Positions 11,645-40,100 of a DNA stretch of 64,000 nt are shown here, piece by piece (the first letter of the stretch is position 1; every line of letters begins with the position of its first letter). The stretch comes from Cyanidioschyzon merolae (taxonomy: Eukaryota), in assembly GCA_000091205.1 (NCBI GenBank), contig AP006491.2; one strand, written 5' to 3'. Under the pieces are notes generated by a model. The model saw only the letters and a program-made list of their open reading frames with translations, had not been told where the DNA came from and did no database searches. The translations under genes and the position numbers were made by a program.

Positions 11645-12817
11645 CTACCTCGAGAAGCTGATTCCCTCGCTCTCGAGGAACCGCATTAACAGCTGGGTCG
11701 ATACGCTGACGTGCTTTGCTGCCAGCGTTTCCATAATTGCTCGTAACGGCACGCAGTCAAGTAAAAGAATACGCTCGTAGAGTGCAGAATCGGCTTTGAT
11801 TGCATCGCGAATGCTTCGGAAGCGGATGCTGTCTCGGTCGAGAGAAGCAGGCACTGCAGCATCTGGGGCAGTCGATGGCGCCTCGGTCGCACTGCAGTCC
11901 GATATCGGGTTCTCGGTGTGCTCCAGCGAACTTGAATGGAGTGCCGCCTCAGTGCTCGCCTCGTGCCCAGAAAGGTCACTGGCGTCGTCGCAGAGGTCGA
12001 CAACCTCGACGGCGTCTTCAGGGCGTGTCGGGATCGTCTCCGTTGGAGCGGGTAGCGTGGCGCCTCCGGTACCAGTGCGGAGCATGTCCCGCCCGATTTG
12101 AAGCGCACCCGCCAGTTGTGTATAGCCATTTCGATACAGTTCTATATCCTCGCATGAATCACTGGCGCAAACAGTCTCACGCTCACATGACTCCTGTGCA
12201 CTGCATCCGTCGTGGTCGCTCGAGTAACGTGGCATCCGCCGCTTCTTCACGCACGCGAGCCGATCCAGTGCAGGTTCCTCGACAAAGCAAAGCGTTTGCT
12301 TTCGCCGCTTCTCGTTCTGTTTCCCCAGGTTTGCAAGGGAAATACGGTATGCAGGTGTACGTAGTGCTTCCCAGAGCCGTTCGGCGCTTGATCGCGGAAT
12401 CTTCAGAAGCTCCAGGTCCGGCTGTTTGAGCAGGAAGAGCCGCTCGAGCGTCAGCTTCTCGCTGACAAGCAGTTCTGCGTAGCGTGCGACACCGTGTGCA
12501 GCCAGAAAGCGTCTCAGTGGTCCAAAAAGTCGCTCTTTTTGAATGCGTCTTTTCAAAAGCTTTTTCTCTTCCAGGGCACGTAGACGTTCGAGATCTGCGC
12601 GAAAACTGCAGCGATCGACGTGACGCCAGCGCCAGTCGAGCGCCCACGAACCAATCTCACGTCCACAGAACGGACACTTGACCTCCTCGTTACCAGAAAC
12701 TTCCTCGGTTTCGGAAACTGATGCAGGTGCTGTAGTAGGACAACAGGTTTCCAAGTGGTGCAGCTGCTCGTAGAGGCACAGAGAATCCAGCGGTGTCTGG
12801 CACTTGCTACAGTGCAT
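11645..12817 (-). CDS. SLX4-like structure-specific endonuclease scaffold candidate, with N-terminal UBZ-type C2HC zinc fingers and a C-terminal SLX1-binding-like helix-turn-helix
   Basis: Two UBZ4-like fingers (CSKCQTPL..H..C and CPFCGREI...HVDRC), a SAP/SAM-like helical segment, and a C-terminus (LYERILLLDCVPLRAIMETLAAKHVSVSTQLLMRFLESEGISF) that resembles the conserved C-terminal domain of Slx4. An ATG sits at 12815-12817 on the minus strand. The assignment is by motif resemblance only. Confidence 0.45.
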   Translation of the reverse strand: MHCSKCQTPLDSLCLYEQLHHLETCCPTTAPASVSETEEVSGNEEVKCPFCGREIGSWALDWRWRHVDRCSFRADLERLRALEEKKLLKRRIQKERLFGPLRRFLAAHGVARYAELLVSEKLTLERLFLLKQPDLELLKIPRSSAERLWEALRTPAYRISLANLGKQNEKRRKQTLCFVEEPALDRLACVKKRRMPRYSSDHDGCSAQESCERETVCASDSCEDIELYRNGYTQLAGALQIGRDMLRTGTGGATLPAPTETIPTRPEDAVEVVDLCDDASDLSGHEASTEAALHSSSLEHTENPISDCSATEAPSTAPDAAVPASLDRDSIRFRSIRDAIKADSALYERILLLDCVPLRAIMETLAAKHVSVSTQLLMRFLESEGISFSR

Positions 12818-13170
12818 ACATGAAAGGAAACCACACTCGCGCTGGGACGAACACCGGACTTGAATTTTTTTGAACGGCAGCGATTGGCAGCGACTCGGCA
12901 GGCGCCGAACTCGTAGTCGTTGCGGTATCTCCGAAAAGGAAGCAGACAGCGCCCAGATTCTGAACGGAAAACGAGTGACGCCGCTTAGTTTTTCCAGAGC
13001 TCATAATTCACGGGAGTCAGGTTCCATGGACAAGAGGAGTCATCCCCACAAATTGAATGACGGCATCAGGACCCGTTTTTGCGTGCCGAGCACCGTGCCG
13101 TGCAGAGGCGAATGCTCCGCACGCGGTTTTCAGAGCGTCCATGTGCGTGCGGACGACACTCAGCAAGCGA

Positions 13171-13450
13171 GCATGAGCATAATCATAAATATAAATAAGC
13201 TTGAGCACGAGCACGAGCACGAGCATAATTCTAAATATAGACATAAGCACGAGCATGAGCATGAGCATAATCATAAATATAAATAGAAACATAAGCACGA
13301 GCACGAGCATAATTCTAAATATAGACATAAGCATGAGCGTGAGCATGAGCATAATCATAAATATAAATAGAAACATAAGCACGAGCACGAGCACGAGCAA
13401 AAGCATGAGCATAATCATAAATATAAATAAGCTTGAGCACGAGCTTGAGC
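13171..13450. repeat. AT-rich minisatellite of about 3.3 units with an ~84-bp period, built from (AGCAYG)n runs alternating with AATCATAAATATAAATA or AATTCTAAATATAGACATA modules
   Basis: Read directly: the period between 13246, 13330 and 13414 is 84 bp. The block is bounded by AATAAGCTTGAGCACGAGC at both ends. Confidence 0.8.
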
Positions 13451-15222
13451 TTGCACTGAGGCCGCCAACGATTTCGGTTGAACGGCGGCAAGCAGCGTGC
13501 ACTCTCCTACTCTTTCACTGACTTGGCAACGTAACTGACCGATACTGCGCGTCGCGTGGTATGGTGGTGGTCGTGTATTGCGCGGCATGTTCTGTAGCAC
13601 GCAATGGTTGCCCGCCTGCTCGCTCGATGGAGGCGCGCAACAAGTGGAGGCACCGATTCTGCTCGATTCTCGTCGATGCGCTCGGGACGGCATGTGTGCA
13701 CGACGAGCACGAGTACACGCTGGAAAATATAGAGAGGAAGAGTGTGGAACGTTGATGGGCGCACGAGGTCTTGTGCGGGAAGTTTATCGAACGTCAGATG
13801 CCGAGCCAATCGCAGGCGTGATGCTCGCTATGATGCATCTCCATGAGCAAGGAGGCACGCGAGCACCCTCTGCACCACCGAGACGTCAACGCCTCGAAAC
13901 AAGTCTGGAAATGTCTCGCGCTTGGGGACCATCCAACGACTGTGTGCTCGATGGAGCCTCCTGAGGGAGTCACTCTGCGCGCAGTGCGAGATTTGTGGTG
14001 AAACGCTGAGGAGCTCTGATGAACAAGTCCGTGACCTGGAGAAAGGAGTTTTTTGATTCTCGCCTGGAGCAGAGCGGTAGTATTGAACTGTGCAGGAATG
14101 CAGAGAGCTCGGTATACCGCATATTCAAGACCGGAACGGTTCTCCTGGGCAATTGTCGAAAGATAATGGTGGTCTGTTTGTCGATATCACCGAGTATAGC
14201 CTTATACCATTCGTGGACGCTGACTAGATCCATTCCTCACTTACCATAAACAATACCTGCCCAAGTCCAGCAGTATTCCATGCCACCTGCGGCGCGTTGA
14301 ACCACAAGATACGCGGCATTTGGCGTCGTGTCAACAATCGTGCGCCCACAGAGAGCTGATTTCGACCTCTCCAATGTTTCGGAGCGGTGCCGATGCCGGA
14401 GCAGATGACAGCGCTCTCGGCTGCGGTGCTTGTCCACAAGGCATCACCCTGGCACTCTTCCTGGTACGCGTGATCCGAATAGAAGGCTACAAAGGATCAA
14501 ATGCGCTGGCGATGTTCTGCATTGCTTCCTGTCCACCTGCGTTCGATGCAGCGAAAAGTGCAGAAGCGCATCGCGCTGTCACTACGTTCGGTGCATTCGC
14601 CTGTATCCGGACACATGGGCACAAGATTTCGTCTGATGGTGGATATTTCGCAAATATCGATACATGCGTTCATGAGTGGTTTGCGAGCTCACCGCGCACG
14701 CATTCGCTAGCGGACTTTGCGGTGTTCACACGCAAGAAGCGCCCTGAGTGTCAAACATGCACGTACTGAACGCGATCTCAGGGTGCTCTCTAAGCGTACA
14801 CAAATGATCATCTTTGCGATCTTGTGACGGAATTGGGATGTTGACGCGGACGCCTGCCCTCTGGAGGCATCAAAACAGCGGTGCTCGTTTCATACAGGTA
14901 ATGATTGCAACAGAATAGCCCATACACCGTCGTAATTCCCACCTGCGGCTTTCACCGCGTAATAGGTTACAGATTCGAACAGCGAGATCGCCACTGCCTG
15001 GTATCGGTGCGGATTGAATGTTTTCAACAAGAGCGCACTCGCTGTTCGAGCTCCCGCGGAAAATCCTCGATCTGGATTCCGCGAAGTTGACCAAGCGCTT
15101 TGAGCGAATCGGCTGGAGACAAGCTCAAGTGCTCATTGATGAGCCCGTCTGCCTCTCTGTGGCACAAGATAACTGCACCGACAGCGTATCGTTCCGCGTA
15201 GGAGACTCTTTCCACGAAATAG

Positions 15223-17607
15223 ATGGTGCTTATTTCGTTCGTGCTCCACAGGCAGCGAACGACACGTCATGAGAAGAAACTGCAGCTGGATGAACGCCAG
15301 CGCTGCAGTCGGCGCGTATCGACCGCTGTCGTGGCCGGGCGCCGCTGCCTGCCGGCGCTGTGCGGCGCTGACGCGAAGATCGCTTTTCTTTCCGGTACTC
15401 AGGAGCACGACGTGGTGTGTGTTGGGTGGATGGGAGCTTCATGGACGCTCTGGCGGGCGGAATACCTGTCCGATAACCGACTTCACTTTGGATTTGTGCC
15501 TGTTGGCTTCCCTTGCCGTTCCCGGCAGCGATGCGTCGGGAAGAGTCTGCGCCAGTGCGGTGCTTTGCGAACGCGACAGCGGCTGCTGCAGCCGCCACCG
15601 CCGCTCGACTACACCAGCGTTGCTGCGCTGGTTCACTCTGTAAAGCAGCGGACTGTTCCCGGTAGACTGGAAACTGTTCTACAACCGGACGCTCGAACCC
15701 TTTACCTTGGCCTGAGAACGCTCGAGATCCCACGGGTGTGGTTGACACTGTCGTGGCACCCGCAGCTCGCGCGTCTAACTGCGGTTCCGGAGCGCAAGGG
15801 CTCCGGCAACCAGAACGACGCACTACGGTATGGTGTGCCCAAGGCGTTCCAAGCCGAGAGCATGCCGTATTCGGTGTCGAACGTGCTGCGCTCAAGAGAG
15901 TTCCGAGACTTGATTCTCTGCGATTGTCGCGCCCCACTTGCTTTTGAGCGCCTCGTGGAGTTCGACTTGGCACGACGACCTGGAGAAGAGCCCATTTTGC
16001 GCATAATTCTGGAACTTGTTGGAACTAGAAGCAACCTCGTTGTACTTGGTGGCATGGATCGACTGGGCGGTCGCGATTCTGGCGATATCCTCGCGTGCGG
16101 TTACCAGCTGGCTGAGGGCAAGAGTGATCGGCCGTTTCGAGTCGGCGATCGTTACGTGTATCCTGCAACAGTACAGGCGAGTTCATCACGTATGCCATCG
16201 GTTTATCGGGACGAGGAGCCGTGGCGCGAGCGACTTGTGGCGACTGCGAGCGGGGATCTCATCTGGCGGGGCCTCACGCGAGCCTTCGTCGGACTCAGTA
16301 GTGCACTGGCGCAGGATATGGTTTCCAGTGCGCTCGGGTCGGATGCACTCGAGCGTTGCACTGAAGAGCTTGAGGCGTCTGAGTGGCACGCGCTGTTTTC
16401 AAACTGGCTTGCGTGGTTAAGTGCGTTGGAGCGTCACGACTTTGCTCCTCATCGAAAAGTTGGCGGCGCTCTTGCAGAAAAAGCATCGGGCCGCACCTCT
16501 TACTCTATGGTGCGTTGGCCAAATGAGGCTCCGTTTGTTCCCACTGATGCGTCTGATCTCATCGCAGACCTGTTCGATCGCTATGAGGTTTGCGTCTACG
16601 CGGAATCTATGGGGAAACGACTGCGCCGAGAACTCGCCCCAAAGCTGAAGCGGGTGCGCAATGCTCTCGCCCAGTATACGAATCGACTCGCTGAAGCGGA
16701 GCACGCTGACCAGTTGCGGGCACGTGGAGACTTGCTCATGGCGTGGCAGCATCTGTGGCAACCTGGCGAGACCTCCCTGAGACCTCCGTCCGAGGCCGCA
16801 TCGGCGTTCGAGTCATGGAAGGGAGACGGCCTGAACGCGGTGTTGGAGATCGCTCCGGGGCGGACGCCCGTGGAAGAGGCTCAAGCGTGTTACCAGCGCA
16901 GTCGCAAACTGCGTCGGGCGGTGCAGGCGCTCGCTCCACTGGAACAGGCCGCGCGCAGAGAGCTTGAACACCTGGAACATTTAGAGTACATGATTTCCGT
17001 AGCGCTTGACTACGGGCAGGATCCAGACTTGGAGCTGCTTCAAGAAGTTTTCAATGAATTACACCTTGCGCAGGCACCAAAATCCGGCAAGTCTGTACCG
17101 TCCAAGCGTGGCTCGCCGACCCGTCGTGACGCAAAGGCTAAGGGCGCATCGAACGCCCGTCTGCTAGACCGTTGCATCCAGTTGCAAGCTGCAACCGAAG
17201 GTTCGAGAATCCTGTGTGGCAAGAGCCAGCACCAGAATGATTACTTGACATTTCGGGTTGCAACGGAGAGTGATCTGTGGTTCCATGCGCAGGGATGTGC
17301 GGGATCGCATTGTATTCTGCGAATGCCGCCCGGATTTGTAGCCTCCACGGACGATGTGCAGCTCGCCAGCGACGTCGCTGCCTACTTTAGCAAGGCACGA
17401 CTCCAAAAATCCGTGCCGGTCGTTTACACTCAGATCAAGTACGTGCGCAGAGCCGATGCCCCGGGTACTGTGAAATATGCAAATGAACGAGTCATTTTCG
17501 GTGAGCCGGATCGAGCTCGGGCGTTCGTGGAGGAACGCAGCGCCATTGAGTTGAGCTCTGCGAGCTCTTCAGCGTCCAGCGCTGTTGAGTCCGGAGACGA
17601 AACGTGA
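15223..17607 (+). CDS. NFACT-family ribosome quality control protein with bacterial RqcH/FbpA-like architecture (NFACT-N, coiled coil, C-terminal NFACT-R), with a ~125-aa Arg-rich N-terminal extension
   Basis: NFACT-N-like region from LDYTSVAALVHSVKQ...ILELVGTRSNLVVLG, a long coiled-coil middle, and a C-terminal NFACT-R/DUF814 signature (ESDLWFHAQGCAGSHCILR). An ATG at 15223 is immediately preceded by an in-frame TAG. NFACT-R at the very C-terminus is the bacterial or organellar type, not the NEMF type. Confidence 0.7.
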   Translation: MVLISFVLHRQRTTRHEKKLQLDERQRCSRRVSTAVVAGRRCLPALCGADAKIAFLSGTQEHDVVCVGWMGASWTLWRAEYLSDNRLHFGFVPVGFPCRSRQRCVGKSLRQCGALRTRQRLLQPPPPLDYTSVAALVHSVKQRTVPGRLETVLQPDARTLYLGLRTLEIPRVWLTLSWHPQLARLTAVPERKGSGNQNDALRYGVPKAFQAESMPYSVSNVLRSREFRDLILCDCRAPLAFERLVEFDLARRPGEEPILRIILELVGTRSNLVVLGGMDRLGGRDSGDILACGYQLAEGKSDRPFRVGDRYVYPATVQASSSRMPSVYRDEEPWRERLVATASGDLIWRGLTRAFVGLSSALAQDMVSSALGSDALERCTEELEASEWHALFSNWLAWLSALERHDFAPHRKVGGALAEKASGRTSYSMVRWPNEAPFVPTDASDLIADLFDRYEVCVYAESMGKRLRRELAPKLKRVRNALAQYTNRLAEAEHADQLRARGDLLMAWQHLWQPGETSLRPPSEAASAFESWKGDGLNAVLEIAPGRTPVEEAQACYQRSRKLRRAVQALAPLEQAARRELEHLEHLEYMISVALDYGQDPDLELLQEVFNELHLAQAPKSGKSVPSKRGSPTRRDAKAKGASNARLLDRCIQLQAATEGSRILCGKSQHQNDYLTFRVATESDLWFHAQGCAGSHCILRMPPGFVASTDDVQLASDVAAYFSKARLQKSVPVVYTQIKYVRRADAPGTVKYANERVIFGEPDRARAFVEERSAIELSSASSSASSAVESGDET

Positions 17608-18687
17608 CCAGCGTAGCCAGATGCTTATCGTCAGGTCAGGAAAAGTGCATGTCGATGTGTGTCTGTTGAGAACCAGTGACTGGGCGTGGTATCGTGAGCT
17701 CAGCATGACCAACTCTTTCGGCAGATGCTGCACGAGGCGCATCGATACAAAAACTGTTCGGGTCCATCAGAAGCATAAGGAAGCTGACTGGCACTCTCCT
17801 TTTAGTGAATTCGTGGGAGACTGGGTGTCAAATGATCTCTGGGTGACCGTGGGACGTATCAGCGAGAAAGCACGTGACTTTGCCACTGGTTTCTCTGCTT
17901 CCAGCGTTCAACGCGGAACCCGCGAAAGGGTTTTATTTCGGATACCGCCGCATCTAGGCGTCAGCGGCTGCACGGATGTAATAGTCCCCCCGCCAGCGTC
18001 GTGCCCCATGCTTCGCACGCTTTGGCGCTGTGCTGAAATCCACGCTCTGTCGTTGCCCTTGTCGTTTGCGAAAAGCCCATCTATTGGACGAGGCCTGTTC
18101 ATCCTGGCAATGATGTTTCAGGAGCCAATCTTGATGTGCGGGTGCAGGAGCGCGCCGCCACTTCATGAAACGCGCCTGGCATGTCGACTGCGATGCACCG
18201 GCATCAGCGTAGCGAGATCGGCGATAGATATGCACGCTGGGGCACCCAGCGCGACATACCACCGACTGATGCAACACCAGCGCAGAGGTTACGAGTTTAA
18301 CGCAAAGCCCGGCACAGAAGACGTTCACTATGATACTCGGTACAGGGGGGGGGGCGCGTGCCTAAACCAACGAGTTTCCCCTCAGTGGTGCGACGCGCGC
18401 GTCTGGGGTCTCTTCACCGGAAGCGCATTGCCCCGCCTAAACCTGCCGTCCATCGTTCACGCAATGGATCAACCTGCCGTTCACGCATCACTGCCGCGAG
18501 CGCGTGCATCCATGCATGCAATCTGCTGTCCATCTTTTACCCCATCGATCAATATCGCCGTGCACGCATGCGTCGTCGCTTTGCATCACCGGGCGCGCGC
18601 ACGAAGCAGATGCTCCAAATGTGCATCATCTTCGATCGATGCGTGTGCATTGTGCGGACACGTTGCGTAGATCGCGATCGGCAGCGC

Positions 18688-18723
18688 GCGGCTGCGGCTG
18701 CGGCTGCGGCTGCGGCTGCGGCG
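18688..18723. repeat. (GCGGCT)5-6 hexanucleotide microsatellite
   Basis: Read directly. It lies in a GC-rich gene-free interval that also contains a G10 run at 18345-18354. Confidence 0.9.
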
Positions 18724-18898
18724 GCCGTGCGGAGATACGGCGGTATCCAGGCTGGCGCAGCGTGTCTGCGTGTGCGAAACGCGCACCATCCCGAGGCGAA
18801 CTGTCAGACAAACGCGGTGACGTCGACTCAAGGAACCGGGCTGTGAGTATAGCGCTCTTTTGTGCTCTGGTATAGTAGGCGCAGACTTGGCTTAGCGA

Positions 18899-20509
18899 AT
18901 GCGTGAGCGCCTCCCCAGTCCAGGCCGTTCGGGAACGCCTGCGCTGCAGTCTACGCGTGGGCACGATTCGCTGCAGCGGCTGCGCGTTCGGCCGGCGAGT
19001 TTTTCACAAACTAGCAGTGCAGCCGACGTACCAACTAGTCCTTTAGTGCTACCACCACTCGTTGGTGGCATGCAGCAAGGTGTTTCGGATTTTGGAAGAG
19101 CCTCAACTGGTCGGGGCCCTCTGTCTAGTGACGCGCCGCCTCCAAGCAATCGAACCGTCGGAATAGGCGGATCCGAAGGGGTACAGAAAGGCGATGACGA
19201 GGGCCAGGACGGCTTTTTCATAGGTAACAACCTGTTTCTCGCAAAAGGCCTCACAACAGCCGCCGCTTTGGCGGACGAACAACTGACGGGCGCGGCGCCT
19301 AGCCGGCTGGGCCCCAGCGGAAACGGCGAAAATAACCCACTGACGCTGAGACGAACGCTTTCCTGTATAGAGATAGACCCGTTTGGAAAAGCACAAGTAC
19401 GCGTTTACACTCGAGAGGAACTCATTCGAGAGCTGCGTTCAGAGTCCGTTACCGGGAACACTGCGGTCGACGTGGTCGAGCTTGCCTTCATCCGAGGCGA
19501 TGCCCGCGAAGAGTCGCAAATGTCTGGCGCGCTGGATCTGGCGCCGGTGACTGGTGGAAATCGACGCACCAAGTCATCAAAATCGAAGAAGAGGACCAAG
19601 TACGGCCCGATCCAGTCTCGCGATCTACGGTTGTTGGACCCGGCGTTCAGTGTGGAGCCGGCCTTGCATGTACGCGATCACGTCATTCTCGCGGTTTTCG
19701 ATAATCATATCCGAGCTGCAATCCAGTCGCATCGCCTGTTTATTTTTGATCACGAGTCCAAAAGAGCGCGACGGGCTACTGAGTTCGTTGTGCAACGACT
19801 CTCCCGAGTGTCAGCCGAGGAGGCGGTGCCCTTTGAGTTCGTTGCGCTGGAGGCGCTTCTCATGGCCACTTGTGCGGACATAGAATGGATGATGAGAAAC
19901 GTGGAGCCATTAATTGAGCGTGAACTAGGAGTTCTTTCAAGAGATCTGCGACGGAGTAATATCGAACGGCTCCGGGTCGATGAGCGCAGGCTCTCTCTTC
20001 TGCTTTCCCGAGCGCGGAATTTCGAGCACCTGCTCGAGGACATCCTCGACGAGGACGAGGACATGAGCCACATGTACTTGACCGAAATGCGTTACCATCC
20101 GGAAAAGTATCGTCTTCCTACCGATCACGAAGATGTGGAGCTGTTGCTCGAGAACGCGCTGCAGACGGTGCAGAGTCAGGTTCGTCGATTGGAGCTGCTC
20201 GATGCCGGCATCAATAACCTTGAGGAGATTCTGGAAATCAAACTGGATATATCTCAGAATCGCATCTGGTCGTTTAATATTTTCGTGCACCTTTGCGTGG
20301 CGACATTCTTCTTAGCTGCAATACCTGCTGATTTTTTCGGAATGAACTTGCAAATACCGCCTGACAAGGATCCGAATGTATTCTGGCCGTGGTTGCTGGT
20401 TTTTGGATTGAATATGGGCTTGGCGGTGGCCTTCTTTTCGCTTGCCATGCTGTTTCTTAAGCGACGACGATTGCTCTTTGGTCTCTTTAAGCGCCATCCG
20501 AGTGACTAG
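18899..20509 (+). CDS. Mrs2/CorA-family Mg2+ transporter (GMN motif)
   Basis: A C-terminal two-TM region with FFGMNLQIP (the canonical GMN), preceded by DEDMSHMYLTEMR and coiled-coil segments. An ATG at 18899. A low-complexity N-terminus could act as a presequence. Confidence 0.8.
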   Translation: MRERLPSPGRSGTPALQSTRGHDSLQRLRVRPASFSQTSSAADVPTSPLVLPPLVGGMQQGVSDFGRASTGRGPLSSDAPPPSNRTVGIGGSEGVQKGDDEGQDGFFIGNNLFLAKGLTTAAALADEQLTGAAPSRLGPSGNGENNPLTLRRTLSCIEIDPFGKAQVRVYTREELIRELRSESVTGNTAVDVVELAFIRGDAREESQMSGALDLAPVTGGNRRTKSSKSKKRTKYGPIQSRDLRLLDPAFSVEPALHVRDHVILAVFDNHIRAAIQSHRLFIFDHESKRARRATEFVVQRLSRVSAEEAVPFEFVALEALLMATCADIEWMMRNVEPLIERELGVLSRDLRRSNIERLRVDERRLSLLLSRARNFEHLLEDILDEDEDMSHMYLTEMRYHPEKYRLPTDHEDVELLLENALQTVQSQVRRLELLDAGINNLEEILEIKLDISQNRIWSFNIFVHLCVATFFLAAIPADFFGMNLQIPPDKDPNVFWPWLLVFGLNMGLAVAFFSLAMLFLKRRRLLFGLFKRHPSD

Positions 20510-20668: not shown

Positions 20669-22783
20669 TCATACGGTAAGGATACCAACCCGCCGCGCCC
20701 ACCAAAACATACACAGAATCGTGAGCGGCACCGTGAATGCCGTGATTGCCACAAAGCCGATGAACCACGAAGCATTGGTGCCGTAGATCGGCAGTTGCAG
20801 ATTCATGCTAAAGAATCGATTCACAACACCAGCGCCAGCGAAGACACAGGTCAGGACGGTCATTAACACACTGATGCGCAAAAGGCGATTTCGCATCGAG
20901 TCCAGTTGCAGATCCACTAAACCCTCGGTATCATCGATGGTGGCACCGAGGAGCCGTGCTCGGCCCGCCAGATAGTCCAGCACCCGCAGGTACGACTCGA
21001 GCAGCTCCTCCACCTGTGTGTGGGCTTTTGTCGGGCGCTCAGTGTCGGGGTGCTTCCGCATTTCGGTTAAATACATTCGAGCCATATCTTCGTCCTCGCT
21101 GAGCAGGTCTTGGAGCGCGTCTCGCACTCCGTCTACTCGAGATGAAAAGTTGCTCAACATTTGCTTCAAATAGAGCATTTCTTCCAGCTTCCTGCCGCTG
21201 ATCTTGTGTGTCAACTCATTCAGGAGGCGCGTGAGACTCGGCTCGATACACGCGAGATCTCGTTCGAGTGCGACGCACACCTCGATCAAAACGGATTCCA
21301 GCGCGTGAAGTTCAAAGGGAATCTCCTGTTCCTCATCACTCTGGGCAGCGATGAGCCGCTCTTCGATGGATCGGGCACTCTGACGCACACTCTGATCATT
21401 GGGATTGAAGAGCAACATATGATCAGCGAAAATGACGGCGCGCAGATGCGCAAGACTCACAATGATCACATGTCGCCGTACGAGAATAACGGGCCGCGGT
21501 TTTGTGGTCGGATGGATTTGTCTCAGGTCGCGGCTTTGAAGGATACCACGCAGCTCAGCCTGGAGCTTTCTGCGTTCCTTCTTGCGCTGTCGCCATACCG
21601 CGTGATGAAGCGTCTCTTCGGACTGGGAGTCTGCTGGAATGCAGTTGGCGCTGCTCGGTGCACGGATCTGATCGTTCGCCCGCGCTGCCGCCAGAATCTC
21701 TGTTGTGGTGATTTTCTCAACCGTGGCATGTCCGTTAAACCCAAACCGGAAACAAAGCAATGTGTTCAGGGCGCGTTTTGGTTTCTTTTGCTCGGCAGGA
21801 GTGTGTTGTCCAAATCCGGCGTATGGTGTTGTCGCGATGGGTTCCGGCGCCTGGCCCCGAGCACGCCCGCTAGGGCGCAACGTCGGTGGCTGCGGAAACT
21901 CCTCATCGTGGCTGTCGCGGTGCTCAGGAGACACGTTTTCCGCACTCGAGGGCAGCGCGCCTTGTCTACGCTCACTTACAGGCGAATCCTCCGCACGGCC
22001 AGAATCTCTGTACAAGTCCCGCTCGTTCGTTGTAAGCGCTCCGTGCAGGTTCGTCTCGTGTTCGGGTCCGGAACTACTGCTAGGTTCAGCGTTGTCTGGG
22101 CGTTCGCGTGTGTGCAAGCTATCCGGGGTCGCGCGTTGCGTCGCACGCTGCAACAAAAGTTGGTTGCGAATCGACTGCTGAAAGAGTTCCAGAGTCTGGT
22201 TTCGAGATCGGAGGCCCTCGAGCGCACCGCTCGAAAGAGAACGTCGGAAATTCGTTTCCTTCGACGAGTACAGTCCCGACTCTGGAGCAGGCTCGAAAGG
22301 TTCCGCGGCAACTGGTGGCGGGCCAGTCTCGAGCAGGGGCGAAGAACCCGCCACCGCCACCGTCACCGCGGACTCCCGAGCGTTCGCCTCGCTCTCGGAG
22401 CAAGGTGGCGCCGGGTGCAAAATCGTCTCATCGTCCAGGCCTTCAGAAGCGTTTAGCGGTAGAATGGGAACTCCACCGTCGCTTTCAGAGTCTGACGCTT
22501 CCATGTTGCCGAGGCGCGAGCAGCGTGTGCCCGAATGCCAACCTCGATGCGCCAGCAGCCTTGCATAGCCGCATTTGGAGCAGGGGCAATGGAGCGGGCG
22601 CGAGGGCCGGGCATGTAGACGAAGCTGCATATTTTGGGACTCTGTGGACAGGGTAGCATACAGCTGATCGTTCTGCTGCGGCACGACAGCGTTGCTGGAC
22701 TTGTGAGCACTGGGCCTTAGGCAAACAGCGCTATGCGCATGCACGTGGGTGCACAGCACCGCAAACCCATGAAAAGACTCCAT
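20669..22783 (-). CDS. Mrs2/CorA-family Mg2+ transporter paralog with a variant SMN motif
   Basis: Shares DEDMARMYLTEMR and a C-terminal two-TM architecture with the upstream paralog, but the signature reads FFSMNLQLP instead of GMN. It has a long low-complexity N-terminal region. It is convergent with 18899..20509, with the stops 160 bp apart. Confidence 0.65.
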   Translation of the reverse strand: MESFHGFAVLCTHVHAHSAVCLRPSAHKSSNAVVPQQNDQLYATLSTESQNMQLRLHARPSRPLHCPCSKCGYARLLAHRGWHSGTRCSRLGNMEASDSESDGGVPILPLNASEGLDDETILHPAPPCSESEANARESAVTVAVAGSSPLLETGPPPVAAEPFEPAPESGLYSSKETNFRRSLSSGALEGLRSRNQTLELFQQSIRNQLLLQRATQRATPDSLHTRERPDNAEPSSSSGPEHETNLHGALTTNERDLYRDSGRAEDSPVSERRQGALPSSAENVSPEHRDSHDEEFPQPPTLRPSGRARGQAPEPIATTPYAGFGQHTPAEQKKPKRALNTLLCFRFGFNGHATVEKITTTEILAAARANDQIRAPSSANCIPADSQSEETLHHAVWRQRKKERRKLQAELRGILQSRDLRQIHPTTKPRPVILVRRHVIIVSLAHLRAVIFADHMLLFNPNDQSVRQSARSIEERLIAAQSDEEQEIPFELHALESVLIEVCVALERDLACIEPSLTRLLNELTHKISGRKLEEMLYLKQMLSNFSSRVDGVRDALQDLLSEDEDMARMYLTEMRKHPDTERPTKAHTQVEELLESYLRVLDYLAGRARLLGATIDDTEGLVDLQLDSMRNRLLRISVLMTVLTCVFAGAGVVNRFFSMNLQLPIYGTNASWFIGFVAITAFTVPLTILCMFWWARRVGILTV

Positions 22784-30639: not shown

Positions 30640-33225
30640 ACGCTGTTCGAAAGTCGCACGTCGCCGACCGTGCACGGTAGTAGCGGGAAACGCGCGTTCG
30701 ACATAGCGTTTCCAGCTGACGTGTAGACGCCTCCCCGTCTTTCTCGACCGGCCACCGACTACTGGTTTCAACTTTTTCTCATATAGTTCCACTTTGAGAG
30801 GTTGCCCCACAAGTCCGCTCTTGTCGTCTCTGGAGGTCTTCTCTCCAGCACCGCACATCTCCTTACATTGATAGCGGCATTAAAGTCAAGATTCACGAAC
30901 TCCATACGTTTCTTGCCATCGTTCGTTGTACTTACTAGTGCAAGTAGCCCTCGCACTTTCGCCCTCCTTTCCATTTGCTCTTCGGTCAGCGGTCCGTACT
31001 TTTTTATATCCTCAGGGCTCCGCTGACACTTTTCCATCTCGACCCTTTGAAGTGTACATCCCAGTTCATGGTGTGTATAGGATGTTCGGAACTCATCTAC
31101 AGTTACTGTGACGAAACGCCATGCACACTCTTTGTACGTTCTTGTCGTTGGAGCTGGTGTAGTTCCTTTTTGGGTCATCAAGCGCCCTGCTCCGTACGCT
31201 ATTACAAGCCTCTGACTTTAATCCTCCTTCAAGGCGCTCAACTCATTGAAACAATTCACGAATGAACGCTGCTTCTGACAATACAAGTTCATACGCAGAC
31301 GAGCCCACCGGGGCTTTGTATACTCTTTCCACAGGGCATCCCAATGCGCCATGCGAACTTCCATGAATTTCCAAAAAGCATCAAGGTCCGCTCCTCGGCT
31401 CGTCACCTCGCTCAAAGCTTCCAGGTGCTCCTTCATTCCTGCATTCCATGTCTCAGTTTTTTTCCTTGCATTCATGATTTCCGATTCTCGATCGTATCTC
31501 GCTCTCGAGAAGCTCAAAATTCGCATGTCTTTCTGACGTAAGTTACCATCAGTATCATCTTCCACACGCCTGGGCAAAGCGATGGTTATGATATTTGTGT
31601 TTCCAGGGTCCGCGTCAACGACAAGGTCGTTATGCTCCACCTCCTGCGTCGCAAGTTCCGCTTCCTTCTTATCTTCATGCTTCGCCGCGGCAGCCATACA
31701 GTCGTTATCCTCCACTTTCTGTGTGGCAGGATCCGCCGTCTTCATATCTTCATGGTTCGCCGAGGACGGAACTGGACGATCTCTCTTCAACCGCCGATAG
31801 TGTATACACAAGGCTACTCCATCGGTTTCGATCAACCCAGTAAGTACCTTTTGTTTGCTGGCTTTGAGACGTTTGAAATCGAAGAGACTCTTCCAGTACG
31901 TCTCCCGGTTTTCACCGGAGAATTCCTCCCTGCTAACACTGAACTCCGGACTGATCCCCTTCATGATGCCGTAAAGGATTCTGGAGTCGACAGTCACAAA
32001 ATGTGACTTGATGTTGCACATTGGAACCAGGTTGAAGCGCTTCCCCATTAGGACAGCCTTCCGTCTCTCCCACTCTTCATTGTTTTCCCCACTCAGCTTC
32101 ATCTCCGCTTTGCGTTCGAGTTCACGGTCCAAAAACACGAAGTACCTCAAGATGAGGAGGCAGTATCTTTCCTTATCTTTTTTCAACTCTGATACCTTTT
32201 CTGATGGATTCACCAGCCCCAAGACTGCACGGTGCTCTTGTATAACCGCACGGATCACAGAAGCTTCATTCGTGCTCTCGTTTGACGCCTTCTTCTCGAC
32301 AAATTCGACCTCATCTTCACGCTTGCGATCTTTCATGATGCCATTGATAATCGCCCATTTTCCATTGCGGGATAGGCCCGGGTAGAGTGCAACCACGGCG
32401 CGTATTAAGAAACGTTCGAGGTTCGTTGTCAAATGGTTCTTCAGGTTCGTGATGCACTTCATCGCCCCATAGTCGTAAATATCGCGGTCACCCCTGCATC
32501 GAGTACCGTTGAAGCTGTAGAAGGGATGTTTTTCGTGGAGGGCACGCACCAGCTAATGTTCCGTCCGCGCTCTCTCTGTGCCAAGCATCAGGTGACGAAT
32601 AAACGTCTTGTCGAGAAACTCGTCCGCAACCTCGACTATTTCCATGTGCGTCACGTCTTCGTACATCTCCCTCGCGCAATGCATCAGTTCTGACGACGCC
32701 TTGACAATACTCTTGGAGTACGAATCGAGACGTTTTTTGATAGCGTCTCGCAACTCTTCCCTGTAGGGATCCTTGATATGTCCAAGAAGGAAGGATTTCA
32801 CCGCCTTCTCGTTGTACAGCCGTCTTTCTTGCCGCCTTCGACGTAGGGCCTCCCCCCTTCGGTTCCTCTTCTCTTTCTTTTCTTCTGGACTCGGCACTGT
32901 TTTTTGTTTTTTTTCTGGCAGCCGGCGACCTTGGGCCCCCAGGATCGTGCACTTTCTTTTCCATAACTTTCCTTTTTAGTATTTTTGAGAAAGAACGCTC
33001 TTTGAACCCTTCTGTTATATGCTGCGAAAAAACACTTGACTAGACTTGTTTGAGAGCTGACACAAAAATGAACTGAAAACTATACGTTGCCAAGATCTCA
33101 ACGGGAATCCGACTTTTACAGCTGAACAACACGCTACTGATCTCAATCGAGTTTCCCTTCAACGGCGACATACGCGTCGTGTCTCATGCCTGCCAGATCC
33201 CCCAGGTGCACTCACCGGGCGCGAC
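30640..33225 (-). mobile_element. TnpB/Fanzor-like element, copy A (decayed), forming the left arm of a large inverted repeat
   Basis: This is the reverse complement of 37493-40100, with about 95% identity across the ORF and about 80% in the 3' flank. The inner boundary at about 33222-33225 matches B's inner boundary at about 37493-37495, and the outer homology fades at about 30640. Confidence 0.7.
30768..32964 (-). pseudogene. TnpB/Fanzor-like RuvC nuclease gene, copy A, disrupted by a frameshift, TAA and TAG stops and a 6-nt deletion
   Basis: Compared with copy B it has an extra A in an A7/A8 run near 32905 (an N-terminal frameshift), the shared in-frame TAG at 32550-32552, GGG to TAA at about 31215 (the ALKED* site), and an in-frame 6-nt deletion (RWASKKGT to RLMTQKGT). 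The RuvC-like motifs are retained: [16 protein letters not shown] and LDFNAAINV. Confidence 0.7.
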
Positions 33226-37492: not shown

Positions 37493-40100
37493 TGCACCTG
37501 GGGGATCTGGCAGACATGAGACACGACGCGTATGTCGCCGTTGAAGGGAAACTCGATTGGGATCAGTAGCGTGTTGTTCAGCTGTAAAAGTCGGATTCCC
37601 GTTGAGATCTTGGCAACGTATAGTTTTCAGTTCATTTTTGTGTCAGCTCTCAAACAAGTCTAGTCAAGTGTTTTTTCGCAGCATATAACAGAAGGGTTCA
37701 AAGAGCGTTCTTTCTCAAAAATACTAAAAAGGAAAGTTATGGAAAAGAAAGTGCACGATCCCGGAGGCCCAGTGTCGCCGGCTGCCAGAAAAAAACAAAA
37801 AACAGTGCCGAGTCCAGAAGAAAAGGAAGAGAAGAGGAACCGAAGGGGGGAGGTCCTACGTCGAAGGCGGCAAGAAAGACGGCTGTACAACGAGAAGGCG
37901 GTGAAATCCTTCCTTCTTGGACATATCAAGGATCCCTACAGGGAAGAGTTGCGAGACGCTATCAAAAAACGTCTCGATTCGTACTCCAAGAGTATTGTCA
38001 AGGCGTCGTCAGAACTGATGCATTGCGTGAGGGAGATGTACGAAGACGTGACGCACATGGAAATAGTCGAGGTTGCGGACGAGGTTTTCGACAAGACGTT
38101 TATTCGTCACCTGATGCTTGGCACAGAGAGAGCGCGGACGGAACATTAGCTGGTGCGTGCCCTCCACGAAAAACATCCCTTCTACAGCTTCAACGGTACT
38201 CGATGCAGGGGTGACCGCGATATTTACGACTATGGGGCGATGAAGTGCATCACGAACCTGAAGAACCATTTGACAACGAACCTCGAACGTTTCTTAATAC
38301 GCGCCGTGGTTGCACTCTACCCGGGCCTATCCCGCAATGGAAAATGGGCGATTATCAATGGCATCATGAAAGATCGCAAGCGTGAAGATGAGGTCGAATT
38401 TGTCGAGAAGAAGGCGTCAAACGAGAGCACGAATGAAGCTTCTGTGATCCGTGCGGTTATACAAGAGCACCGTGCAGTCTTGGGGCTGGTGAATCCAGCA
38501 GAAAAGGTATCAGAGTTGAAGAAAGATAAGGAAAGATACTGCCTCCTCATCTTGAGGTACTTCGTGTTTTTGGACCGTGAACTCGAACGCAAAGCGGAGA
38601 TGAAGCTGAGTGAAGAAAACAATGAAGAGTGGGAGAGACGGAAGGCTTTCCTAATGGGGAGGCGCTTCAACCTGGTTCCAATGTGCAACATCAAGTCACA
38701 TTTTGTGACTGTCGACTCCAGAATCCTTTACGGCATCATGAAGGGGATCAGTCCGGAGTTCAATGTTAGCAGGGAGGAATTCTCCGGTGAAAACCGGGAG
38801 ACGTCTTGGAAGAGTCTCTTCGATTTCAAACGTCTCAAAGCCAGCAAACAAAAGGTACTTACTGGGTTGATCGAAACCGATGGAGTAGCCTTGTGTATAC
38901 ACTATCGGCGGTTGAAGAGAGATCGTCCAGTCCTGCCCTCGGCTGCGCCCGCGACGAAGGATGAAGATAAGAAGGAAGCGGCTCCTGTAACGCAGGAGGT
39001 GGAGGATAGTGACTTTCTCGTTGACGCGGCGAAGGATGAAGATAAGAAGGAAGCGGCTCCTGCGACGCAGGAGGTGGAGCATAACGACCTTGTCGTTGAC
39101 GCGGACCCTGGAAACACAAATATCATAACCATCGCTTTGCCCAGGCGTGTGGAAGATGATACTGATGGTAACTTACGTCAGAAAGACATGCGAATTTTGA
39201 GCTTCTCGAGAGCGAGATACGATCGAGAATCGGAAATCATGAATGCAAGGAAGAAAACTGAGACATGGAATGCAGGAATGAAGGAGCACCTGGAAGCTTT
39301 GAGCGAGGTGACGAGCCGAGGAGCGGACTTTGAAGCTTTTTGGAAATTCATGGAAGTTCGCATGGCGCATTGGGATGCCCTGTGGAAAGAGTATACAAAG
39401 CCCCGGTGGGCTCGTCTGCGTATGAACTTGTATTGTGGGAAGCAGCGGGCGTTCGCGAATTTGTTCAATGAGTTGAGCGCCTTGAAGGAGGATGGGAGTC
39501 AGAGGCTGGTAGTGGCTTATGGAGCAGGGCGCTGGGCGTCGAAGAAAGGCACTACGCCAGCTCCAACTACGAGGGTGCACAAGGAGTGCGCAAGGCGTTT
39601 TGTTACAATACCTGTAGATGAGTTCCGAACATCGAATACAAACCACGAGCTGGGATGCACACCCCAGAGAGTGGAGATGGAAAAGTGCCAGAGGAGCCCT
39701 GAGGAATTTGCAAATTACGGACCGCTGACGGAGGAGCAAATGGAAAGGAGAGCGAAAGTGCGAGGGCTACTTGCACTATTAAGTACAACGAACGATGGCA
39801 AGAAACGTATGGAGTTCGTGAATCTTGACTTTAATGCCGCTATCAATGTAAGGAGATGTGCGGTGCTGGAAAGTAGACCTCCAGAGTGGACACGAGAGAA
39901 CTTTTTTGGATAACCTCCCAAAGTCGAACTATATGAGAAAAAGTTGGAAGCAGAAGTAGGTGGCCGGTCGAAAAAGGCGCGGAGGCGCCTGCGCGTCGAC
40001 TGGAAACGTTTCGTGTAAGGCGCGGTTTTCCCGCCACTACTGTAAACTGCCGACGTCGTTCGACTTAGAGCGGCGTTGGCGGCTGTCCGTTCAGGGTGGC
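37493..40100 (+). mobile_element. TnpB/Fanzor-like element, copy B (the more intact one), forming the right arm of the inverted repeat
   Basis: A 246-bp 5' region, an ORF at 37739-39913, and about 190 bp of 3' flank that is still homologous to copy A. Homology ends about 35 bp upstream of the SMC1 ATG at 40135. Confidence 0.7.
37739..39913 (+). CDS. TnpB/Fanzor-like (IS605 OrfB-like) RuvC-fold nuclease candidate, 725 codons, interrupted by one in-frame TAG at 38147-38149
   Basis: A RuvC-I-like motif ([17 protein letters not shown]....DG), a segment resembling the TnpB strand that precedes the zinc ribbon ([20 protein letters not shown]), a degenerate zinc-ribbon region (H..GC...C), and a RuvC-III-like DxNAAxNI motif ([12 protein letters not shown]). 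A basic NLS-like N-terminus ([31 protein letters not shown]). An internal 75-bp tandem duplication ([15 protein letters not shown]...) sits just before RuvC-I. The ATG is at 37739. The assignment is by motif pattern only. Confidence 0.5.

Follow-up and report, generated by a model that had tools for sequence, protein, structure and literature searches.

The locus considered here raises the question of what a protein labelled as a fibronectin-binding protein does in Cyanidioschyzon merolae, and in which compartment it does it. The window that we analyzed is a 64,000-nucleotide stretch of contig AP006491.2 (GenBank assembly GCA_000091205.1), and positions 15223-17607 on its plus strand form one uninterrupted open reading frame (ORF) of 794 aa. 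The product is identical across all 794 aa (100%) to BAM80056.1 / XP_005536342.1 / UniProt M1UR44 of C. merolae 10D, which GenBank labels 'probable fibronectin-binding protein'. A sequence-only reading of the window had proposed instead a bacterial-type RqcH, carrying a basic N-terminal extension of about 125 aa and serving ribosome quality control (RQC) in an organelle. The best explanation that emerges from our analysis, to which we give a probability of roughly 0.7, is that the gene is a nuclear copy of a cyanobacterial rqcH that was acquired with the plastid, and that its product is imported into the plastid and acts in RQC there.

The domain content identifies the family. Pfam assigned NFACT_N (PF05833) to residues 129-614 (E 8e-51) and NFACT-R_1 (PF05670) to residues 658-748 (E 7.7e-10), numbered here and below on the annotated protein unless the shorter form starting at M70 is named. 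The domains follow the order NFACT-N, helix-hairpin-helix (HhH), coiled coil with M domain, and NFACT-R near the C-terminus. No NFACT-C match was found by Pfam in the 794-aa protein, even at E<=1, and the protein ends 46 aa past NFACT-R. The arrangement read earlier from the letters (NFACT-N, coiled coil, NFACT-R at the C-terminus) is therefore borne out. The features of the conserved part and its tail are as follows:

15607-17064, plus strand: NFACT-N and the middle region (helical HhH, coiled coil and M domain), from Pfam, AlphaFold and Foldseek
15946-15951, plus strand: E242-R243, by alignment the equivalent of the D97-R98 tRNA-Ala motif of Bacillus subtilis RqcH
16012-16020, plus strand: E264-L265-V266, by alignment the equivalent of 'EIM' in the VEIMGRHSN stretch of Bacillaceae RqcH
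16549-16698, plus strand: first long coiled-coil helix, residues 443-492 (374-423 in the model of the M70 form)
16867-17010, plus strand: second long coiled-coil helix, residues 549-596 (480-527 in the model of the M70 form)
17194-17466, plus strand: NFACT-R (RNA-binding), residues 658-748 by Pfam, aligning to RqcH residues 465-562
17467-17607, plus strand: non-conserved, Ser-rich acidic C-terminal tail and stop codon, unaligned among orthologues, with a predicted local distance difference test (pLDDT) score below 50

Sequence and predicted fold both place the protein with bacterial RqcH. The best sequence match in the PDB by phmmer was B. subtilis RqcH (E 1.5e-25), with human NEMF at E 0.58, and the NCBIfam model for archaeal RqcH, whose cutoff is 400 bits, gave 22.6. 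We modelled the M70 form with AlphaFold from a 9-sequence alignment; the model had a mean pLDDT of 74 and showed the sheet region of NFACT-N, a helical part, a small domain between two helices of about 50 residues each, and an NFACT-R fold. In a Foldseek search of this model against the PDB, B. subtilis RqcH on the ribosome ranked first (8s1u_H, 7aqc_R and 7as8_0; E 4e-26 to 6e-23). The target-normalized template modelling (TM) scores were 0.53-0.68 over about 650 columns for RqcH and 0.32-0.38 for human NEMF and yeast Rqc2. By domain order, sequence and predicted fold the protein is thus of the bacterial RqcH type and not NEMF/Rqc2, as the sequence-only reading had it.

Conserved residues of RqcH are kept as well. 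D97-R98 is the motif for tRNA-Ala selection in B. subtilis RqcH (PMC8373112). In our alignment of 132 homologues, the column that corresponds to residues 97-98 of a Bacillaceae RqcH has Arg in every sequence (132/132) and an acidic residue, E or D, in nearly all of them, mostly Glu (in cyanobacteria, 15 of 16). In 130/132 the 'EIM' stretch also keeps its Glu. The C. merolae protein therefore shares with B. subtilis RqcH (YloA; PDB 7AS8/7AQC/8S1U) its domain order, the C-terminal position of NFACT-R, the lack of NFACT-C, and the conserved Arg and Glu of these two motifs, and the Bacillus protein is its best PDB match by structure as well as by sequence. The two differ in that identity is only about 20-23%, in that the C. 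merolae protein is nuclear-encoded with a 58-aa leader, and in that its mature part is about 95 aa longer, owing to low-confidence insertions (123-144 and 549-576 in M70-form numbering) and to the Ser-rich acidic tail. They also differ in the motif itself, where Asp in B. subtilis is Glu in C. merolae, as it is in most cyanobacterial and many other homologues.

These comparisons leave the annotated name with little behind it. A surface adhesin, as 'fibronectin-binding protein' would have it, draws on the inherited annotation and a partial match to the NCBIfam EfbA model (114 bits against a cutoff of 1025) and on nothing else. The name itself dates from early work on Gram-positive pathogens, and the family was later shown to be RqcH, the bacterial homologue of Rqc2 (PMC8373112). 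With the ribosome- and tRNA-binding architecture and motif apparently intact in the C. merolae protein, we give an adhesin practically no credence and consider the name misleading.

A cytosolic protein that serves 60S subunits in a reduced genome, either in place of NEMF or beside it, deserves somewhat more thought, and a preprint does raise cross-compartment use of the single Arabidopsis Rqc2 homologue (bioRxiv 10.1101/2025.09.02.673837). NEMF/Rqc2 proteins (human 9GY4_Z, yeast 8AAF_a, Arabidopsis EMB1441) belong to the same superfamily, combine NFACT-N with NFACT-R, and carry out template-free C-terminal tailing on the large subunit, an activity that we presume by analogy for the C. merolae protein. 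NEMF, however, has more than 1000 aa, binds 60S subunits, works with Listerin, and has the NFACT-C domain as its defining feature (PMC4075521). Its sequence similarity to the C. merolae protein is marginal and its structural match is the poorer one (E and TM values above). The C. merolae protein lacks NFACT-C, is closest in fold and sequence to a protein that binds bacterial 50S subunits, and has a conserved, cleavable-looking leader that bacterial homologues lack. Moreover, NFACT proteins of the archaeal/eukaryotic type have been reported in all major eukaryotic lineages (PMC4075521). Taken together, a cytosolic role appears very improbable.

We then asked from which bacteria the gene derives. 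With a profile of four Cyanidiales sequences, HMMER gave 10,631 matches at E<=1e-3 among 1.84 billion representative proteins. After the Cyanidiales themselves, the top matches were of two types: proteins of 570-600 aa that begin 'MQPxDFTTL', and longer ones, of 640-860 aa, with 30-150 residues ahead of this core. Every named protein of the first type was cyanobacterial (Thalassoporum PCC 7367, a Gloeobacterales metagenome-assembled genome (MAG), Synechococcus PCC 7336, UBA8156 and a Cyanophyceae MAG). The named proteins of the second type came from Porphyridium purpureum, Rhodosorus marinus, Vitrella brassicaformis and Sphagnum magellanicum, together with two MMETSP transcripts. In a scan of GTDB genomes the cyanobacterium Nodosilinea was best (31% identity, E 3e-84) and a Firmicute reached 23% (E 4e-27), in a search that used two peptide patterns and confirmed 3 loci and so serves as a contrast, not a survey. 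A word search with a 32-sequence profile returned 9 proteins, mostly known Cyanidiales, its candidate filter apparently following the first sequence. A neighbor-joining distance tree of 132 sequences (539 trimmed columns, 100 bootstraps) gave these groups:

cyanobacteria with the N-extended sequences, to the exclusion of every other bacterial RqcH sampled: bootstrap 100
Cyanidiales: bootstrap 100
green-type group: bootstrap 63
red plus complex-red group: bootstrap 60
eukaryotes as one group: bootstrap 34

Because every named top bacterial match was cyanobacterial and the clade that joins cyanobacteria with the N-extended eukaryotic homologues had 100/100 bootstrap support, the sequence data support an endosymbiont-derived, cyanobacterial origin, again in line with the earlier proposal. 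The claim that can safely be made from these sequences is membership in a cyanobacterial/plastid clade, the deeper branching being weakly supported. The closest bacterial relatives are the cyanobacterial proteins (Nodosilinea, Thalassoporum PCC 7367, Synechococcus PCC 7336, Gloeobacterales), with 29-33% identity and profile scores of 235-321 bits against at most 186 bits for other bacteria in the top list. They share the clade and the same core from 'DYT/DFTTL' onward, but they are encoded on a bacterial chromosome, measure about 570-600 aa and have no leader, their core starting at residue 3-4. In a published survey rqcH was present in 161/162 cyanobacterial genomes (PMC11633108).

The C. merolae gene itself is nuclear. 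It sits on an 810-kb chromosome among ordinary nuclear genes, namely those for DNA polymerase alpha, an Slx4-domain protein, two MRS2-like magnesium transporters and an SMC protein, and the order DNA polymerase alpha-Slx4-RqcH-MRS2 is kept in three other Cyanidiales (Cyanidiococcus, Cyanidium and one further cyanidiophyte). It is from this chromosome record, the flanking genes and their shared order that we conclude nuclear location. The N-terminal part has the following features:

15223-15429, plus strand: 69 in-frame codons of the GenBank coding sequence, probably 5' leader and at most a strain-specific extension
15430-15432, plus strand: likely true start codon, M70 of the annotated protein
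15430-15603, plus strand: M70-P127, a basic presequence of 58 aa and putative plastid transit peptide
15484-15510, plus strand: conserved Phe-Pro motif HFGFVPVGF within the presequence

The conserved RqcH core begins at L128 (LDYTS), and the first question is how much of the sequence ahead of it is protein. An in-frame TAG immediately precedes the ATG at 15223, so this ATG is merely the one that gives the longest possible ORF. In the five environmental C. merolae contigs that span the annotated start, which come from five metagenome samples and are all more than 99% identical to the window, this codon is ATT (position 15225 is T; 5/5), and the first ATG is the one at 15430. The 207 nt of 15223-15429 hold 8 polymorphic sites, 5 of them non-synonymous, against 14 in the remaining 2178 nt of the gene, a six-fold higher density (Fisher p = 3e-4). 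With 11 polymorphic sites in the 693 nt of upstream intergenic region, the segment is at least as variable as non-coding DNA next to it. Three orthologues (Cyanidiococcus, Cyanidium and the further cyanidiophyte) have leaders of only 50-59 aa ahead of the core. The first Met of the Cyanidiococcus and further-cyanidiophyte (P0003) proteins lines up with C. merolae M70, and an in-frame stop stands 6 codons upstream of the first Met in orthologue loci L005 and L008.

The alternative is that the alga makes the 794-aa protein as annotated, its leader then measuring about 127 aa, and some observations count in favor of this and against an M70 start. The ATG at 15223 is present in the reference strain 10D and in environmental variant P0014, with the frame open, and strains of the 10D/P0014 type could make the 794-aa form if their mRNA begins upstream of 15223. 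In codon usage these 69 codons fall between true coding sequence and spurious ORFs and are hence not clearly non-coding: of 192 spurious stop-free stretches, 11.5% equal or exceed their log-odds score, while 9% of true coding windows equal it or fall below it. Stop-free stretches score high by construction, and the true, conserved presequence scores non-coding on the same measure. Contigs for P0008 stop 2 nt before M70 and thus carry no information on these codons. With the ATG directly behind a stop, replaced by ATT in all five contigs, the raised and largely non-synonymous polymorphism, and orthologues that lack any such extension and align their first Met with M70, we regard the 794-aa product as unlikely. 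That M70 (nt 15430) is the functional start we hold with good confidence, and the annotation probably begins 69 codons too early. The extension of about 125 aa in the sequence-only reading, which hinged on those codons being translated, stands in part: its first 69 codons are doubtful and appear not to be translated, while the other 58 are a leader conserved among orthologues.

Two side observations concern start codons. Position 15225 is a within-species start-codon polymorphism, ATG in 10D and P0014 and ATT in the five metagenome contigs, and in 10D the upstream AUG may add 69 residues before the transit peptide or may lower expression as an upstream start. In the cyanidiophyte loci L005/L006 (nt 6001 and 6058) a second in-frame Met (M20) stands directly before the Phe motif (MAFLGTVPFF). 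A start at M20 would give a textbook rhodophyte transit-peptide N-terminus there, and the annotated start of that gene may also lie too far upstream.

The 58-aa leader of C. merolae (M70-P127) has 9 Arg, 1 Lys, 2 acidic residues and 6 Ser/Thr, and about residues 1-53 of the M70 form are predicted to be disordered (pLDDT 25-30 in the AlphaFold model). Cyanobacterial and other bacterial homologues have no such leader, with 2-4 aa before the conserved DYT. Within it, one F and one P are invariant in the four Cyanidiales leaders (HFGFVPVGF in C. merolae, AFLTIIPNF, AFLGTVPFF and LTFIPGLS). A Phe in the N-terminal region marks the transit peptides of rhodophytes and glaucophytes as well as the transit-peptide part of the bipartite signals of complex red plastids (PMC2222254, PMC4510345, PMC9407449).

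We judged targeting from the types of leader across the family. A leader of at least 30 aa precedes the core in 46/56 proteins of the eukaryotic clade, while the median in cyanobacterial and other bacterial proteins is 2-3 aa; the clade members with shorter leaders look like truncated gene models. Leaders of the red-type branch have Phe near the N-terminus, at positions 3-9 (MAFLQMP, MLGFVAF, MTNVSFIVP, MAIGFLV, MLVAPILTFIPG). In the branch of the chromerid Vitrella, 10 leaders measure at least 25 aa, and 7 of these (all but P0062, P0081 and P0094) open with a strongly hydrophobic, signal-peptide-like segment, after which several show Phe (...HISHA-FRLTSP, ...RGAS-FIKTAP). Leaders of the Sphagnum branch, which is of green type, are rich in Ala, Arg and Ser. 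The algal and moss homologues (Porphyridium purpureum 'protein YloA' KAA8495110.1, Rhodosorus, Vitrella CEL99012.1, Sphagnum, Physcomitrium, Klebsormidium) therefore share architecture, clade and the presence of an N-terminal leader with the C. merolae protein, and differ in a leader type that varies with the type of plastid. We found no experimental studies of these homologues in the searchable literature. As a separate observation, in two eukaryote-clade homologues the core is preceded by a very long N-terminus, of 575 strongly acidic aa in P0094 (1381 aa) and of 184 aa in P0081 (1068 aa); these may be fusions or gene-model errors.

Because the leader type follows the plastid type across the family, we favor the plastid over the mitochondrion, and on this comparison of leaders C. 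merolae RqcH most likely works inside the chloroplast. The organelle targeting proposed earlier thereby gains support, with the plastid as the organelle. Import into mitochondria, or into both organelles, to serve the bacterial-type mitoribosome is the main competitor, and it shares the ground on which the plastid call is weakest. To judge from its sequence, the C. merolae leader, Arg-rich and with few hydroxylated residues (6 Ser/Thr in 58 aa), could suit mitochondrial import too. The first Phe of the M70 form stands at position 20 (motif at 20-27), preceded among aromatic residues only by Trp5, Trp8 and Tyr12, and is late for a transit peptide of rhodophytes or glaucophytes, in which Phe usually falls within about the first 10 residues (PMC4510345). 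In Cyanidiococcus the Phe-Pro motif likewise follows the start by about 20 residues. As far as sequence can tell, this late position is the weakest point of the plastid call for the C. merolae protein. The protein's cyanobacterial ancestry and the plastid-bearing nature of every organism with a named eukaryotic homologue speak against a mitochondrial destination, as does the conservation of the Phe-Pro motif in 4/4 Cyanidiales leaders. The leaders of the Vitrella branch, with a signal peptide first and then Phe, fit a route into a plastid and not one into mitochondria. We accordingly judge mitochondrial or dual import to be rather improbable.

Beyond the late Phe, the Arg-rich leader and the doubts over the start codon, three further points weigh against plastid import and function as we propose them. 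The eukaryotes hold together weakly in what is a simple distance tree (bootstrap 34). The assignment of most clade members as eukaryotic rests on their leaders and on about 10 named species. Alanine tailing in any plastid or cyanobacterium is undocumented in the searchable literature, and likewise we found there no reports on the localization of C. merolae RqcH or its presence in an organelle proteome. It is with these points in view that we place the plastid reading at about 0.7.

Under the plastid reading, the following sequence of events may be envisaged. Translation would most likely start from M70 (nt 15430) and give a product of about 725 aa, of which the first 58 residues or so would be a disordered, Arg-rich, Phe-containing transit peptide. 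The precursor would be imported into the chloroplast and its leader removed. Mature RqcH would then bind the plastid 50S subunit with the peptidyl-tRNA that is left after stalled or collided 70S ribosomes are split, presumably by the cyanobacterial-type MutS2 retained in red algae, and would bring in tRNA-Ala by means of the [D/E]R motif in its NFACT-N domain. Acting with an S4-domain protein of the YlmH or RqcP type, it would add poly-alanine to the C-terminus of the incomplete chain, a tag for degradation by plastid proteases. Of these steps, entry into the plastid, binding to the ribosome, tailing with alanine and the choice of partners are what we infer for the C. merolae protein.

Parts of the surrounding pathway have been described. 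MutS2 acts in ribosome quality control in the chloroplast, and red algae have a single MutS2 of the cyanobacterial type and C. merolae a plastid SmpB (bioRxiv 10.1101/2025.09.02.673837). Half of the cyanobacterial genomes analyzed in another report have RqcH with YlmH and without RqcP (bioRxiv 10.1101/2024.03.03.583159), and from this pairing the plastid partner would likely be an S4 protein of the YlmH type. A wider proposal is that a complete RQC of the cyanobacterial type (MutS2 splitting, alanine tailing by RqcH with a YlmH-like protein, and proteolysis) was inherited by the first plastids, that it still runs in red algae and those with complex red plastids as well as in green algae and mosses, and that vascular plants have lost the RqcH step. 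We consider this wider proposal a little more probable than its denial.

The distribution of the homologues bears on that proposal. The N-extended homologues with a name come from Porphyridium, Rhodosorus, Cyanidium, Cyanidiococcus, Vitrella, Sphagnum, Physcomitrium, Ceratodon, Klebsormidium and Apatococcus, all of them plastid-bearing. A search with the Sphagnum protein recovered two Sphagnum species, Ceratodon, Physcomitrium, the charophyte Klebsormidium and the trebouxiophyte Apatococcus, followed by about 90 cyanobacterial clusters at 36-41% identity and then by Bacillaceae at E ~1e-45. No vascular plant was among its 143 matches, although the search did reach the more distant cyanobacterial proteins. 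This agrees with the recent MutS2 study, in which Arabidopsis had no bacterial-like RqcH by BLASTP and the plastid factors downstream of MutS2 were called 'entirely uncharacterized' (bioRxiv 10.1101/2025.09.02.673837). The founding NFACT paper gave as eukaryotic members only the archaeal-derived type with NFACT-C and no version derived from plastids or cyanobacteria (PMC4075521). We found no description of a plastid or algal RqcH in the literature searched, which left out most subscription journals, and the RqcH family across algae and mosses is apparently undescribed.

Several other features of the window were recorded. Directly downstream of RqcH, the two MRS2-like magnesium transporter genes lie tail to tail at 18899-20509 (plus strand) and 20669-22783 (minus strand). 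Cyanidiophyte L005/L006 has both as well. For Cyanidiococcus (L007) the second gene is represented only by an incomplete call, without annotation, where the contig ends, and Cyanidium has a single MRS2-like gene on the opposite strand. An ORF of 361 codons at 17585-18670 (plus strand) overlaps the 3' end of RqcH, and prokaryotic gene callers report it as 272-372 aa in metagenome contigs. It is probably spurious, because it has no Pfam match and its length differs among near-identical contigs. A scan of 12800-18900 for repeats found tandem repeats only and nothing else that bears on the RqcH gene. One of these, at 13168-13420, is a compound repeat with periods of 84, 42, 36 and 6 nt, made of GAGCAC/GAGCAT and AT-rich units whose translation gives HEHEHE/ININ runs, and it lies in the unusually long intergenic region (about 2.6 kb) between the Slx4-like gene and RqcH. 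Another is a perfect (GCGGCT)x5.8 hexanucleotide repeat at 18688-18722, just upstream of the first MRS2-like gene. A scan of the whole window for tRNA genes found none. GC content falls to 0.50-0.56 at 30-38 kb, with an AT skew of -0.14 to -0.18 that flips to +0.16 at 38-40 kb, and rises to 0.63-0.64 at 54-60 kb. The ORFs at 31218-32549 (minus strand) and 38153-39913 (plus strand) have no Pfam match.

For the database record, the findings correct a misleading name and a start that is probably placed 69 codons too far upstream. Their wider meaning lies in the reach of the pathway. Bacterial RQC (MutS2, RqcH, RqcP/YlmH) is known chiefly from work on Bacillus. That red and green algae, a charophyte, mosses and a chromerid all keep a cyanobacterial RqcH with a putative targeting leader extends the occurrence of its tailing factor to eukaryotes that have plastids but are not vascular plants. 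If plastids did inherit the pathway, C. merolae RqcH would be the missing downstream factor that the plant MutS2 study did not find in Arabidopsis. Gene targeting is routine in C. merolae, and two questions become testable: whether alanine tailing occurs inside a plastid, and how the work would be divided with the plastid transfer-messenger RNA (tmRNA)/SmpB system that red algae have also retained.

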